Shown here in pieces: positions 13,634 to 45,348 of a stretch of DNA of 52,740 nt. The stretch covers positions 1 through 52,740 of IMG/VR virus record IMGVR_UViG_3300050015_001011, one strand, 5' to 3'. The stretch is from a virus (lineage: Duplodnaviria > Caudoviricetes). The notes under the pieces were generated by a model, which was not told where the DNA came from, did no database searches, and saw only the letters and a list, made by a program, of their open reading frames with translations. A program made the position numbers and the translations under genes. Every line of letters begins with the position of its first letter. Position 1 is the stretch's first letter.

Positions 13634-13889
13634 GTCATTGTATAATAATTAAGGAGGAACAAAATGGCACAAAAATGGTTGAAGATTGTTAAAAATGATT
13701 TAACTGATGTCGCTATTGATTTAGATACAATTGGAAGTATTATAGTTAGTAGAAGAAGTTCGAAGGAAGATGGAATGATATTATTTGGCGCCGGCCCTGT
13801 TGAAGTAGGCAATGATGAAGTATCTGAAGATGAGTGGAAAAGAATTCTTGATGTTGTAGACAGTTTGTAAATCAAAAAGGAGGAATAGC

Positions 13890-15275
13890 ATGGCGAAGAC
13901 AAATAAGAAAGTGAAAGAGGAAAAGATTTATACACATGAAGGGTCTCCTGCTACCCGCACAACTGCTGAAAATCAATTGAGGCGTTCTTTGATGTCCTGT
14001 ATGTTGTGGGAAAATGAATTCTACGAAGATGGCCAAAAAATTTCTGAACGTATCGCTGATCTTGTTGGAAAGGTAGACAGAAATAAGGTTGCTTTAATGG
14101 CGATCGAAGCGCGGGAGAAGATGCATTTACGTCATGCTCCTTTGTGGGTTGTAAGGGCGCTTGCTAAAGTTTCTGATGGTACTTCTCTTGTATCTGATAC
14201 TCTTGCAACGGTTATACAGAGGCCAGACGAGTTAACAGAGTTTCTGGCTTTGTATTGGAAAGACGGTAAAGCACCTCTTTCTGCGCAAGTGAAGAAAGGA
14301 TTGGCAAAAGCATTTACTAAGTTCTCTGAGTATTCTTTGGCTAAGTACAATCGAGCTGAGGCCATTAAACTGAGAGACGTTTTATTTCTTTGCCACGCGA
14401 AACCAAAGGATCGGGATCAAGCTGATTTGTGGAAGAGATTGGTTGACGGAACAATGACAACTCCTGATACCTGGGAAGTGGAACTTTCTGCTGGCAAGAG
14501 CAAGAAAGATGTGTTTGAAAGACTGTTGAAGGAGAAGAAACTTGGTGGTCTTGCTTTCTTACGGAACTTGAGAAATATGGAAGAAGCTGGTGTAGACAAG
14601 AAGTTAGTAAACGCTTCAATAGAAACGGTTGATTTCTCAAGAGTATTACCTTTTAGATTTATTGCTGCTTCCATGGCTGCTCCTAAGTTTGAGGGAGTAA
14701 CAGAGAAGGCTATGTTAGCTTCTATGGAAGGTAAAGATAAGATGAAAGGCAAAACAGTTTTGATTGTAGATGTGTCTGGAAGTATGTATGGTTCTAGTAT
14801 ATCAGGCAGATCTATAATGAATAGAGCTCAGGTAGCAAGTGCCTTAGGAATATTAGTAAGGGAGTTGTCTGAGGATTCATCAATTTATGCTACTGCCGGA
14901 AATGATAGTTCGTGCGTTCATCAGACGGCTGTTGTACCCGCACGAAGAGGATTTGCTCTGTCGGATTATATTTACAGTCAGTGTAATCCTTTAGGTGGTG
15001 GAGGTATCTTTCTTAAACAAGTAATGGACTATGTTTTAAAGTATGAGAAAGAAGCTGACCGAGTTATTGTGATAACGGATGAGCAGGACTGTGGTGGAGG
15101 CGGAGAAGATGCTCCCGCAAAAGCAAATACCTTTGGAAAAGAAAATTATTTGATTAACGTAGCCTCTAATAAGAATGGAATTAGTTATACAGGAAAGTGG
15201 ACACGTGTTGATGGTTGGTCAGATGCGGTAGTAGATTTTATTTTGAAAAACGAGTCCCAAGTTCGTGAGCAGTAA
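13890..15275 (+). CDS. rsr: Ro60/Rsr TROVE-domain RNA-binding protein with C-terminal vWA domain
   Basis: THEG, LRR..MSCMLWE..FYEDG, QRPDE, KYNR...LRDVLFLCH.KP, TWE..LS, LRNLRNM, LPFRF, vWA DVSGSM and ITDEQ; adjacent Y-RNA-like elements. Confidence 0.93.
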   Translation: MAKTNKKVKEEKIYTHEGSPATRTTAENQLRRSLMSCMLWENEFYEDGQKISERIADLVGKVDRNKVALMAIEAREKMHLRHAPLWVVRALAKVSDGTSLVSDTLATVIQRPDELTEFLALYWKDGKAPLSAQVKKGLAKAFTKFSEYSLAKYNRAEAIKLRDVLFLCHAKPKDRDQADLWKRLVDGTMTTPDTWEVELSAGKSKKDVFERLLKEKKLGGLAFLRNLRNMEEAGVDKKLVNASIETVDFSRVLPFRFIAASMAAPKFEGVTEKAMLASMEGKDKMKGKTVLIVDVSGSMYGSSISGRSIMNRAQVASALGILVRELSEDSSIYATAGNDSSCVHQTAVVPARRGFALSDYIYSQCNPLGGGGIFLKQVMDYVLKYEKEADRVIVITDEQDCGGGGEDAPAKANTFGKENYLINVASNKNGISYTGKWTRVDGWSDAVVDFILKNESQVREQ

Positions 15276-15282
15276 AGAATAT

Positions 15283-15354
15283 TACAAGGTATGGTGAAGA
15301 TAAGGGTTACTTCATGAAAAGAAAACAACCCTAATCGCTTGTTCCTACCTTGTA
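15283..15354 (+). ncRNA. Y-RNA-like unit 1 (minimal, stem only)
   Basis: TACAAGGTA/TACCTTGTA terminal stem, GATAAGGGTT/AACCCTAATC upper stem; shares TGGYG...GA...GGKTACTTC and TCGYYTGTTCCYAC motifs with units 2 and 3. Confidence 0.7.
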
Positions 15355-15361
15355 TAATAAG

Positions 15362-15454
15362 TTGTCTGGTGTGGCGATAGAGAACGGTTACTTCTAATTG
15401 AAAATAGAATGCCCTTTAGTGGGCATAACCGTTTTCGTTTGTTCCCACCAGCAA
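15362..15454 (+). ncRNA. Y-RNA-like unit 2 (two apical hairpins)
   Basis: CTGGTG/CACCAG terminal stem, GAGAACGGTTA/TAACCGTTTTC upper stem, apical TTCTA/TAGAA and ATGCCC/GGGCAT hairpins; same conserved motifs. Confidence 0.7.
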
Positions 15455-15459
15455 ATGTA

Positions 15460-15544
15460 GCGAGAGGAGCTGGTTTGATTCCAGGCTAAGTTAGGGTTAA
15501 CGTTAACTTAAATCCTAATCAATAGTGTACGAAGGCACGCTCGC
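15460..15544 (+). ncRNA. Stand-alone circularly permuted tRNA-like module
   Basis: GCGAG/CTCGC closing stem; T-arm-like CTGG-TTTGATT-CCAG; long hairpin GTTAGGG.../...TCCTAAT; D-arm-like TA-GTGT-ACGAAG-GCAC-G. Confidence 0.5.
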
Positions 15545-15558
15545 AAAATGTAATCGCT

Positions 15559-15701
15559 TTTCAGTATGGCGTAGATAATGGGTACTTCTAAAAGGAACTG
15601 GCCGTCGTTGGTTCAATTCCAACTTCAAACCTTCGGGTTTGGATAGCTCAGTTGGCAGAGCACCAGTAAAAAAAGTCCTTTATCGCCTGTTCCTACTGAA
15701 G
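15559..15701 (+). ncRNA. yrlA: YrlA-type Y RNA with tRNA-mimic domain (unit 3)
   Basis: TTCAGTA/TACTGAA terminal stem; ACTGG/CCAGT stem; T arm GTTGG-TTCAATT-CCAAC; acceptor-like stem TTCAAACC-TTCG-GGTTTGGA; D arm TA-GCTC-AGTTGGCA-GAGC; order T-acceptor-D as in YrlA; downstream of Ro60. Confidence 0.88.
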
Positions 15702-15718
15702 ATTTTAAAAGGAGGCAA

Positions 15719-16075
15719 ATGGAAAAAGATTCGTTAGGTAGAGCTATTGAAGAAATTTTTAAAGAGGAACCGTTGCCGTTTAGTAAGTGGATAGAGCAAT
15801 TTATTATTCCTGGTGAGAAGGGAGCTTTTAGGTGGTGGGATGTAAGTTTACAGAACTGTTTATTAAAAAAGGAGGGTCAAATGAGGGTAGAAGCATATAC
15901 AAAGCATCACGTAAAGTACACACTTACAGCTAAAAATAAGGATCACGCAAGAGAAATTGCTAACAGAATTATTACTGAAGGTTTATGGATTACTGCTGAT
16001 GAGGGCACGGATAAGGGAACCGAAGTATTTTTTCCTGTACACCAAATTTTTAAAGTTAAGATAATTGGTGTATAA
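15719..16075 (+). CDS. Hypothetical protein (internal in-frame start at 15881)
   Basis: AAGGAGG RBS before both ATG 15719 and ATG 15881. Confidence 0.55.
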   Translation: MEKDSLGRAIEEIFKEEPLPFSKWIEQFIIPGEKGAFRWWDVSLQNCLLKKEGQMRVEAYTKHHVKYTLTAKNKDHAREIANRIITEGLWITADEGTDKGTEVFFPVHQIFKVKIIGV

Positions 16076-43983: not shown

Positions 43984-45348
43984 ATGATTAAGTTATCAAC
44001 ACAACCTAAATACAAGATAGGAGACCTCATCACTTTAAAACAAGGTGCTGAGGTAATTATTTCTGGTACGCAGGACGAGGTTCCGAGAAAGTGGGTAGAT
44101 GATGGTAAGCTTTGGGGTGTAGATCATTATGAGGAAGAATCAGGAAGGCTTAATATCAATCGCGTACTTACTCCTTATCCTGGTGCTTTTTGTTCTTGGG
44201 TATCCGAAGATGAAGTACTAGGAATAAGTTTAAGTAGACAAGCTCAAGATGATGAAGATGAGTTTGATGTAGTAGCACGCAAGTTTCTAAAGTGGACAAA
44301 GAGTTTAAATCTTTCAACTCCGAGCGCATTTATTTCTAAGAATAAATTAGAAAGATTATTTAAAGGGCTTGCTAAAACAGGGTTTATAGATAGACCGTTA
44401 CTTGAGGAACTTAGAATGGACGTAATTGTTAATTTAAAAAGTTTTGTAAGTAAAGTTAAAGAATTTTGGAAAAGATATAACGTAATGGATGAAGATGAGA
44501 AGGGGCATCTTTCTAGCATCTGGAGTGAAGGATCGTATGATAATGATGATATTGAGGCCGGAATGGACAACCTAGATGAGTTATTCTCTTTTGAAGATAG
44601 TGGCGGTGGCTTATCTTATTACGAAGCTCTATTGCAACCGGGACTTTCAGATGCAGATTTATTTCAAAGATTTAATACATTCATAAATTTTGCTCATCAG
44701 AGAATAGATTATGGCGCAGATTGGGTAGAAGGAGGTAGAGAAACTTTGGATGAATTAGCTGGCTATAAAAAAGTATTTAAAAAGAAAGCAGCAGACTTTA
44801 CTTGCATTATGCTAGAGATAGATAAGCAAGAAAGTATTTATGCTAAGATAAAGGCTATTGCAAAGAAGATAAAGAAGGAAGATCTGTCAGAAGATGGTAG
44901 AGAAGATGATTTACATGTTACGCTGAAGTATGGACTTGATACCGAAGATCCTGCCCTCATAAGGCCTTTACTTGATAGTGAAGGAAAAATTACTTTAGAA
45001 ATAAAGAAGCTCGATTATTTTGGGGCTAAGGAAACAAAGCAGGATTTTGATGTAGTTATTCTTAGAGTAGATTCTGATCAAATACAAGAACTTCATGAAA
45101 CTATAACTGATACCTTTAAGGATTCGGGCGAAACTCATCCTAAGTACTTGCCCCATATTACTCTTGCTTATGTAAAAAGGGGTTTGGGAAAAGATATCGT
45201 AATAGAATTAAGAAAGGATGCTGAAGATTTAATAGGTAAAAAAATTGTATTTAAAGAAGCTTTATTCAGTACACCAGAAGAAAAAAAGACTGTGATAAAA
45301 TTAAGTAGGCAGATAGTAAAACAAGTTAGATTAAGCAGACAAGGATAA
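43984..45348 (+). CDS. Multidomain protein with C-terminal 2H phosphoesterase (Acb1/LigT-like)
   Basis: Two HxT motifs LHVTLKYG and PHITLAYV; N-terminal SH3-like and acidic modules joined by LSRQAQ and KKKAA linkers. Confidence 0.85.
   Translation: MIKLSTQPKYKIGDLITLKQGAEVIISGTQDEVPRKWVDDGKLWGVDHYEEESGRLNINRVLTPYPGAFCSWVSEDEVLGISLSRQAQDDEDEFDVVARKFLKWTKSLNLSTPSAFISKNKLERLFKGLAKTGFIDRPLLEELRMDVIVNLKSFVSKVKEFWKRYNVMDEDEKGHLSSIWSEGSYDNDDIEAGMDNLDELFSFEDSGGGLSYYEALLQPGLSDADLFQRFNTFINFAHQRIDYGADWVEGGRETLDELAGYKKVFKKKAADFTCIMLEIDKQESIYAKIKAIAKKIKKEDLSEDGREDDLHVTLKYGLDTEDPALIRPLLDSEGKITLEIKKLDYFGAKETKQDFDVVILRVDSDQIQELHETITDTFKDSGETHPKYLPHITLAYVKRGLGKDIVIELRKDAEDLIGKKIVFKEALFSTPEEKKTVIKLSRQIVKQVRLSRQG

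Follow-up and report, generated by a model that had tools for sequence, protein, structure and literature searches.

A phage Ro60 gene followed by three Y RNA-like units, and the stem module these units share with phage and bacterial relatives

Genes for Y RNAs have been reported to adjoin the Ro60 gene in more than 250 bacteria and 22 phages. In the bacteria described by Chen et al. (2014, PMC4201824), they lie within a few kb of Ro60 and on the same strand, with at least two Y RNAs in each species studied, one of them tRNA-like and one a hairpin. The stretch of DNA considered here (the window) is the IMG/VR virus record IMGVR_UViG_3300050015_001011 (Caudoviricetes), which is 52,740 bases long and estimated to be 40% complete, and in which an open reading frame (ORF) with a TROVE domain is followed by three similar structured units. 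Are these units a Y RNA set of the phage's own Ro60, and if so, how is such a set built and where else does it occur? A first-pass annotation of the DNA had read the locus as one phage Ro60 that loads several modular adaptor RNAs with swappable apical domains and a putative Ro60-binding motif that differs from the metazoan consensus. The analysis described here retains the Ro60, the paralogous covarying units, and the YrlA type of the third unit, and corrects this reading on three points: the motif is close to a published bacterial one, the apical domains do not swap freely, and RNA sets beside a phage Ro60 were known before. With a probability of roughly 80%, we take the units to be Y RNAs of this Ro60, one YrlA-like and two hairpin-type in the role of YrlB/Yrn2, with their expression and Ro60 binding being predicted.

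The Ro60 gene and its three units

Judged by its matches, the product of the TROVE ORF is a phage Ro60 with TROVE and vWA/MIDAS parts, as had been proposed. Pfam TROVE (PF05731) scores 63.7 bits (cut-off 23, E 2.5e-17) and Pfam vWA_Ro60 a sub-threshold 21.1 bits (cut-off 27.7). The closest solved structure by sequence is that of the Ro60 of Thermus phage phiLo (9KOP/9L5Y), which matches residues 14-451 of the 461 with an E of 1.7e-23, and the MIDAS motif of the window protein, DVSGS (DxSxS), aligns with the same motif in phiLo Ro60. Among cultured phages, the protein is nearest to that of Caulobacter phage CcrColossus (49.5% identity), followed by those of the Brevundimonas jumbo phages (about 46-48%), Xanthomonas phages (46.7%), the crAss001 group (38-40%), and Rhizobium phages (35%). 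At the DNA level, the gene shows a weak similarity to TROVE genes of crAss-like phages (65-67% over 14-20% of the query, 24 records).

The repeated two-part motif that had been noticed after the TROVE stop codon was found with all of its arms. The 5' arms of the units are GGTATGGTGAAGATAAGGGTTACTTC, GGTGTGGCGATAGAGAACGGTTACTTC, and AGTATGGCGTAGATAATGGGTACTTC, and the 3' arms of units 1, 2, and 3 carry TGTTCC at 15340-15345, 15440-15445, and 15688-15693, respectively. When the three units are aligned with MAFFT, TGG-G, AGA, and G-TACTTC are invariant on the 5' side and TCG--TGTTCC-AC on the 3' side, at a mean column identity of about 56%, and the terminal stems differ from unit to unit yet stay complementary (GGUA/UACC, GGUG/CACC, and AGUA/UACU), as described initially. 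Each unit folds into one long hairpin closed by its own 5' and 3' ends, with predicted folding energies of -21.9, -38.4, and -40.3 kcal/mol for units 1, 2, and 3 that were equalled by 1, 0, and 2 of 200 shuffled sequences, respectively. The limits set by the covariance models introduced below fall within one base of those first drawn, at each end of each unit.

The differing apices reported in the first reading (an A-rich loop, two hairpins, and a full tRNA mimic) are all present. Unit 1 has a 9-bp terminal stem, a bulged U, GG:CC, an internal loop of UGAA opposite GCUUGUU, and a 10-bp second stem, after which UACUUC (15308-15313) leads into an apical A-rich loop of 18 nt. UACUUC is found at 15389-15394 in unit 2, whose tip has a loop of this kind with a UUGAAAAU stretch and, in addition, a GC hairpin at 15409-15426, and at 15583-15588 in unit 3, whose tRNA-like tip (15590-15685) follows the YrlA order, with a T arm, then an 8-bp acceptor-like stem that a UUCG loop closes, then UA and a D arm. 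The Rfam YrlA model (RF02553) supports the proposed tRNA mimicry of unit 3, as it aligns to this tip over model positions 1-114 with a sub-threshold score of 33.9 bits (E 1.4e-5), and in cmscan the posterior probability is high for the T arm, the acceptor stem, and the D arm. With relaxed thresholds, YrlA is the only Rfam match at an E below 1 in 15200-15800; no Rfam match reaches its gathering threshold in the whole window, and ARAGORN calls no tRNA in it.

A module linked to Ro60 genes in phages and bacteria

Relatives of the units were sought with a covariance model (R1) for which the three window units were the sole input and 19 base pairs were specified by hand, and with a second model (R2) rebuilt from the 42 matches of R1. 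The viral set consisted of the window, 18 viral contigs (protein identity 42-55%), and seven loci of named phages, amounting to 26 sources. At E<=1, R1 found 42 more-or-less complete units in 22 sources (187,730 bases, both strands), all of them on the + strand, the strand of their TROVE gene, from which they are no more than a few hundred bases away; on both strands of the window, it found nothing beyond the three units. R2 gave 75 matches in 26 of 26 sources (1 to 8 per source), again all on the + strand and adjoining the TROVE gene. CcrColossus has 8 of them, Xanthomonas phage Olaya and Brevundimonas phage Gurke have 5 each, loci L018 and L011 have 4 each, and crAss001, cr112_1, and Rhizobium phage TM30 have 3 each. 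The eight of CcrColossus occupy L022 1262-2458, and the three of crAss001 are at L019 3651-3738, 3830-3975, and 4084-4227. The link to Ro60 also holds at the scale of genomes: when five entire records of phages or viruses were searched (CcrColossus, crAss001, Olaya, G001, and G002; about 813 kb in sum), all 20 matches at E<=0.001 stand beside the TROVE gene and none away from it, and in the 280-kb CcrColossus genome the eight units occupy 108,499-109,695, adjoining the TROVE gene at 107,047-108,456. These matches beside Ro60 genes, found with a model from only three units, and the covarying stems described below bear out the earlier view that the units form one paralogous family of structured RNAs.

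Phages are not the only carriers of the module family. When one genome of each prokaryotic species was scanned with a 12-protein alignment, at least 577 relatives were found, of which the best 80 were searched for units. Their proteins are 51-58% identical to the window protein, and they come mostly from Acidobacteriota (Terriglobales) assemblies, including one complete chromosome, with a few isolates and some other phyla. At E<=0.01, the 80 loci (544,102 bases) contain 306 matches to R2, and each of the 300 that were listed is on the + strand and upstream of the Ro60 gene. At least one match is present in 77 of the 80 loci; among the other three, two have less than 120 nt of upstream sequence and L063 shows none despite 1,154 nt. 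The largest count is 11 units within the 3-kb flank of one locus (L031, 92-2928), and some bacterial arrays reach the edge of the fetched 3-kb flank and may be longer. Three bacterial loci were examined for a conserved protein partner beside the arrays, and only unrelated chromosomal genes were found there (MFS transporter, TetR, esterase, PfkB kinase, GST, ankyrin protein, and similar).

In the viral sources, the array lies upstream of the Ro60 gene in 20 of 26; it lies downstream in the window, in L018, and in the crAss001 group, and on both sides in L008. Position and spacing bear on an explanation in which the units are structured parts of the Ro60 mRNA (of the 3' untranslated region here and of the 5' untranslated region in most relatives) and act as autoregulatory sites or as nuclease barriers that set mRNA stability. 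The units do abut the ORF, with unit 1 at 7 nt from the stop codon and gaps of 7-8 nt in the Ro60-unit 1-unit 2 stretch, and they are invariably on the strand of the Ro60 gene. No promoter-like or terminator-like site was found on the + strand in 13743-16036, and the ribosome-binding site a few bases past unit 3 indicates that the array sits within an operon. A cis role could also find support in GGCGAAG, the Y RNA 5' motif, which is contained in the first codons of the Ro60 ORF of the window (ATGGCGAAGA, 13890-13900) and likewise at 3001-3012 of L004-L007, and which could be a coincidence there or a hint of autoregulation. However, the flip of the array between upstream (20 of 26 viral sources, and the 300 bacterial matches listed) and downstream positions is hard to reconcile with a position-dependent cis role. 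A copy number of 1 to 11 or more, the closure of each unit by its own terminal stem, and tRNA-like tips with all the features of free YrlA RNAs, which are processed and Ro60-bound in bacteria (PMC4201824), also speak against it, and we consider it unlikely that the units serve the mRNA instead of acting as Y RNAs.

Covariation was measured in three alignments fitted to the model's own structure, namely A3 (42 units), A4 (75 units), and A6 (88 units of bacterial origin, taken from 21 of the 80 loci and absent from model building). Paired cells make up 91.1, 89.8, and 90.1% in A3, A4, and A6, values to which the fitting itself contributes, versus 58.0, 55.0, and 66.4% after shuffling. The covariation scores are 0.762, 0.824, and 0.613 versus 0.188, 0.199, and 0.191, with slid partners giving 0.10-0.155, 0.108-0.163, and 0.05-0.10, respectively. 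In A3, the observed values were reached by 0 of 500 shuffles, and two-sided changes occur in 18 of 19 pairs. The only pair count free of model-fitting bias comes from a structure-blind procedure (MAFFT followed by RNAalifold) on 20 short units (drawn from the window, from 12 viral loci, and from 5 bacterial loci), which returned the same helices with compensatory changes in 14 of 15 pairs. Covariation among homologous loci, whose absence would have refuted the first reading, is strong.

The paired columns further contain 75 G-U versus 25 A-C cells in A4 and 97 versus 35 in A6, and this excess fits an RNA read from the + strand rather than a DNA palindrome or an antisense RNA. As tandem and partly palindromic elements, of which two in L018 are near-identical and recent duplicates, the units might be regarded as DNA-level repeats, such as recombination sites or miniature mobile palindromes near Ro60. 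The ratio of G-U over A-C of about 3 to 1 counts against such repeats, as do the same orientation to the gene in 75 of 75 viral matches and in the 300 bacterial ones listed, the asymmetry of the conserved single-stranded motifs, and the fact that the stems covary despite the low identity among the window units, which makes a purely DNA-level origin highly improbable.

Across the family, the module has a shared anatomy. From its ends inward, it begins with a terminal stem that varies and covaries and measures about 5-9 bp, which is followed by one bulged pyrimidine on the 5' strand, 2 bp that are usually GG:CC, and an asymmetric internal loop with Y-G-N-A on the 5' side (within GGYGNAG) and CG-N-N-U-N-U-U on the 3' side (CGNNUNUUCC). 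Next come a second covarying stem of 9-10 bp and near-constant length, UACUUC (kept by all 42 units of A3 and by 69 of the 75 of A4), and finally the tip. The GG:CC pairs, seemingly invariant, covary elsewhere as AG:CU, GC:GC, and GU:AC. In vertebrates, the Ro60 site of Y RNAs has a layout that resembles this one, with a helix, a single bulged pyrimidine, two base pairs, and an asymmetric loop. Two further readings of the internal loop were rejected by eye: a GGYG:CGYY pairing across the loop fits the three window units and fails in L018 (UCGAU), and the strand asymmetry does not fit a kink-turn.

The family consensus of the 5' strand is tGG-Y-G-N-A-g. A motif close to the 5' end in bacterial Y RNAs, GNCGAAN0-1G, has been linked to Ro60 binding (Chen et al. 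2014, PMC4201824), and on comparison tGG-Y-G-N-A-G is a relaxed form of it, with an exact match (GGCGAAG) in L004-L007. The motif does differ from the metazoan consensus, as had been pointed out, and it is at the same time close to the published bacterial one.

Table 1. Features at the Ro60 locus of the window, with the scores of the covariance models R1 and R2
Feature	Coordinates	Strand	Details
Ro60 gene (TROVE + vWA/MIDAS)	13890..15275	+	461 aa; strong AAAGGAGG ribosome-binding site 5' of the ORF; TAA at 15273-15275
Unit 1, hairpin-type, Y RNA-like	15283..15354	+	R1 86.6 bits; R2 72.3 bits; fold z -3.87
Unit 2, hairpin-type	15363..15453	+	R1 78.6 bits; R2 67.8 bits; fold z -6.05
Spacer between units 2 and 3	15454..15557	+	104 nt; no Y-module motifs
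Unit 3, YrlA-like	15558..15702	+	R1 73.3 bits; R2 56.1 bits; fold z -2.58
Next ORF	15719..16075	+	118 aa; AAAGGAGG ribosome-binding site a few bases 3' of unit 3

Tip classes and tRNA-like elements

The first-pass annotation had described the apical domains as swappable. They are not freely so, as the tips fall into recurrent classes that are found at distant loci. Among the 70 distinct tips of A4, the short ones (24 nt or fewer) have GAAA after ACUUC in 12 of 17 cases (500 shuffles: mean 3.0, maximum 9), and a weaker tendency is seen in the bacterial subset (8 of 20; shuffle mean 2.4, maximum 9). Unit 1 is a member of this short GAAA class. The tip class of unit 2 (UUGAAAAU stretch, then GC hairpin) recurs in L001 and L013, and of the distinct long tips (over 50 nt), to which that of unit 3 belongs, 24 of the 34 viral ones and 36 of the 55 bacterial ones contain a T-loop-like motif. 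Because these classes recur across loci, the trio of the window can be described as one of each common class.

The T and D arms of unit 3 raise the possibility that the units are relics of degenerate tRNA genes, or tRNA-like marks at which RNase P/Z would process a polycistronic transcript, without a specific tie to Ro60 binding. The Ro60 loci of related phages are indeed rich in tRNAs (34 Rfam tRNA matches in 18 loci), and both annotators and ARAGORN have placed tRNAs within some units. On the other hand, units 1 and 2 are without tRNA features, a T-loop-like motif in a long tip is present in only 24 of the 70 distinct A4 tips while the full module is kept in all units, and the conserved portion is the non-tRNA stem with UACUUC. 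The module is, moreover, confined to TROVE neighbourhoods even in phages with tRNA clusters elsewhere, and we therefore regard a tRNA-relic origin as very unlikely.

Some of the tRNA calls at these loci deserve a comment of their own. The tRNA-Gln of CcrColossus (L022 1673-1740) and the tRNA-Ser of Brevundimonas phage Gurke (L024 2296-2370) are annotated or predicted tRNAs inside ordinary YrlA-order units and consist of the 5' arm of the unit plus its T arm, and for this reason look like mis-annotations. The coordinates of the tRNA-Asn that ARAGORN calls in Xanthomonas phage Olaya (L023 2285-2355) are likewise inside a Y RNA-like unit. Several annotated phage 'tRNA' genes thus appear to be pieces of Y RNA-like units. 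In phage Gurke, Rfam also matches a permuted tmRNA (L024 5872-6217; 57.7 bits, gathering score 47), which lies downstream of Ro60 at a distance of about 2 kb.

A further arrangement is seen in crAss001 (L019 3830-3975 and 4084-4227) and cr112_1 (L021 4348-4489), where permuted tRNA/Y chimeras occur. They have a tRNA shape in the normal order with free acceptor ends (acceptor 5' strand, D arm ... T arm, acceptor 3' strand), in which the anticodon arm is replaced by a Y module (stem 2, the loop, and a short capped terminal stem) that runs from the 3' arm over the short capped stem to the 5' arm and UACUUC. Rfam tRNA matches span 142-144 nt of two of them, each with an insertion of about 70 nt (L019 3830-3973, 46.6 bits; L021 4348-4489, 50.2 bits); at L019 4084-4227, the tRNA model gives no gathering-level match. 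The chimeras of crAss001 and cr112_1 carry no annotation and receive no ARAGORN call.

Within the window, the spacer between units 2 and 3 has a GCGAG/CUCGC stem that closes around a T-arm-like hairpin (CUGG UUUGAUU CCAG), together with one long AT-rich hairpin and one small hairpin, and its topology is that of a YrlA tip without the Ro60 stem. AAATGTA stands at both of its flanks, followed by AATCGCTT, which resembles the beginning of a unit 3' arm. The spacer may be a decayed unit or a separate RNA. Its fold is no better than that of shuffled sequences (z -0.82, equalled by 43 of 200), neither R1 nor R2 matches it, Rfam at E up to 10 yields nothing beyond a chance miRNA match, and none of the fetched loci shows similarity to it.

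Among the sequencing runs listed as containing the stretch there is no RNA run, and four DNA runs gave contigs of 151-318 bases, none of which spans the array or offers usable variation inside the units, with one exception. A soil-metagenome contig (run X6) is identical to window 15352-15416 and then continues with a variant of the 3' arm of unit 2, in which one change in stem 2 turns a U-A pair into U-G; this suggests that related phages with diverged units exist.

As to the neighbouring genes, the ORF that follows unit 3 has no Pfam or PHROG match. Other products of the window are a terminase large subunit, SbcCD-like nuclease subunits, an NrdD-like reductase, glycosyltransferases, RecA, and a gp32-like protein. 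ORF 43984-45348 (454 aa) was considered as an RNA-repair partner and rejected, as its PHROG label 'RNA ligase' refers to a C-terminal 2H phosphoesterase/Acb1-like domain. The 2H phosphoesterases in question belong to the 2'-5' RNA ligase superfamily, and the ORF may encode an anti-CBASS-type enzyme.

Known Y RNA systems and the possible role of the array

Several points weigh against the interpretation of the units as Y RNAs of the phage Ro60. Their expression, processing, and Ro60 binding are predictions from sequence. The Rfam YrlA model does match unit 3, as had been anticipated, yet the score lies below the gathering score of 69, and none of 18 related loci has a YrlA match at gathering level. 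The window motifs GGUGAAG, GGCGAUAG, and GGCGUAG each agree with GNCGAAN0-1G at 5 of 6 specified positions, the pairing in A3, A4, and A6 is inflated by the fitting to the model, and the arrays are mostly upstream of Ro60 elsewhere and downstream in the window. Any role given to UACUUC is a guess. Finally, the cis role in the Ro60 mRNA is the main rival, and it is compatible with a Y RNA role, so that the two could coexist.

Described systems show features in common with the window units as well as differences. The YrlA and YrlB RNAs of Salmonella Typhimurium and Mycobacterium smegmatis are, like the window units, encoded near Ro60 and on the same strand, their ends form a stem with a G-N-C-G-A-A-like motif, and one of the two has a permuted T arm, closed acceptor stem, and D arm while the other is a plain hairpin. 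They differ in number, as there are two such RNAs where the window has three and its relatives up to 8-11. The stem of the window units carries GGYGNAG, CGNNUNUUCC, and UACUUC, which the Rfam YrlA model lacks. Furthermore, all window units share one recognizable module, whereas Chen et al. (2014, PMC4201824) report no detectable YrlB orthologues outside Salmonella and state that Ro60-bound RNAs have 'eluded bioinformatic discovery'.

Phage phiLo likewise encodes a Ro60 with neighbouring Y RNA-like genes, and this Ro60 has been reported to bind two neighbouring RNAs, Yrl1 and Yrl2, which have a stem-bulge-stem layout and a CGAA-type motif (NAR 2025, PMC12135203). The phiLo protein forms a ternary complex with host PNPase in vitro. 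The two RNAs of phiLo lie upstream of the gene and the three of the window downstream, and a tRNA-like tip or a UACUUC element is not described for phiLo in the available part of that report (PMC12135203). In Deinococcus radiodurans, the RYPER complex of Rsr, Yrn1/Yrn2, and PNPase offers a parallel with its Ro60-binding stem, effector-binding tip, and more than one Y RNA beside rsr (PMC4201824, bioRxiv 10.1101/312249); it represents a sequence lineage separate from that of the window units. Vertebrate Y RNAs, with two to four paralogues per species, also have the Ro60-binding stem in common and differ in their loops, but they use another sequence motif, are transcribed from polymerase III genes outside any Ro60 operon, and have no tRNA-like tip.

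The three units are real, and multiple Y RNAs beside a phage Ro60 are already known: several Y RNAs for one Ro60 had been published before, a phage among the cases (Chen et al. 2014; Yrl1 and Yrl2 of phiLo, PMC12135203). What appears undescribed is the shared module, which escapes the Rfam YrlA model, together with arrays that reach 8-11 units and the crAss001 chimeras of permuted tRNA/Y type. Our literature search found no description of Y RNAs in crAss-like phages, of the UACUUC-bearing module, or of the Acidobacterial arrays, and no arrays beyond a few units, although Chen et al. (2014) may have several hits for single phages in their supplementary tables.

If the units are Y RNAs of the phage Ro60, a mechanism can be outlined by analogy. 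The Ro60 gene, the units, and the downstream ORFs would be on one transcript, from which the units would then be excised, and a processing from one precursor has been reported for YrlA and YrlB of M. smegmatis (Chen et al. 2014, PMC4201824). The outer surface of Ro60 would bind the bulge-and-loop part of the unit stem, and UACUUC, one helical turn further up, might be a second point of contact, for Ro60 itself or for some partner that all units have in common. The tip would set the target of the ribonucleoprotein (RNP): A-rich or GAAA loops might offer single-stranded RNA to a nuclease such as PNPase, and the tRNA-like tip might engage a tRNA-recognizing factor. During infection, such RNPs could redirect or dampen host RNA decay or repair. 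Published observations that are of interest in this context are the attenuation of PNPase in vitro by the Ro60-Yrl-PNPase complex of phiLo (PMC12135203), the early expression class of the crAss001 TROVE gene (PMC8375218, PMC10136315), and a preprint according to which phage Bas63 has a Ro60-like protein that acts against the 'ppl' defence system (PMC11482910).

For the family as a whole, the module provides a handle on hairpin-type Y RNAs, which are hard to find by homology, and units of every kind are detected with it together. In this subfamily, Ro60 genes are accompanied by arrays rather than by one or two RNAs. As the module is present in cultured phages (crAss001, which grows on Bacteroides intestinalis, CcrColossus, and phages of Xanthomonas and Brevundimonas), it becomes possible to test there what phage Ro60 RNPs do. 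More speculatively, and with odds that we put clearly on the low side, this may be a Ro60 subfamily with combinatorial adaptor RNAs built on one docking module, with sets of 2-8 in phages and of 11 or more in Acidobacteria and with the module grafted at the anticodon position of crAss001-type tRNAs, in which the phage sets, tethered to Ro60, would act as tRNA decoys or as repair platforms against host defences that target tRNA or other RNA. If this were true, one ring protein would be aimed at many partners simultaneously, and the phage sets could also compete with a host Ro60/Y RNA system that uses the same module.

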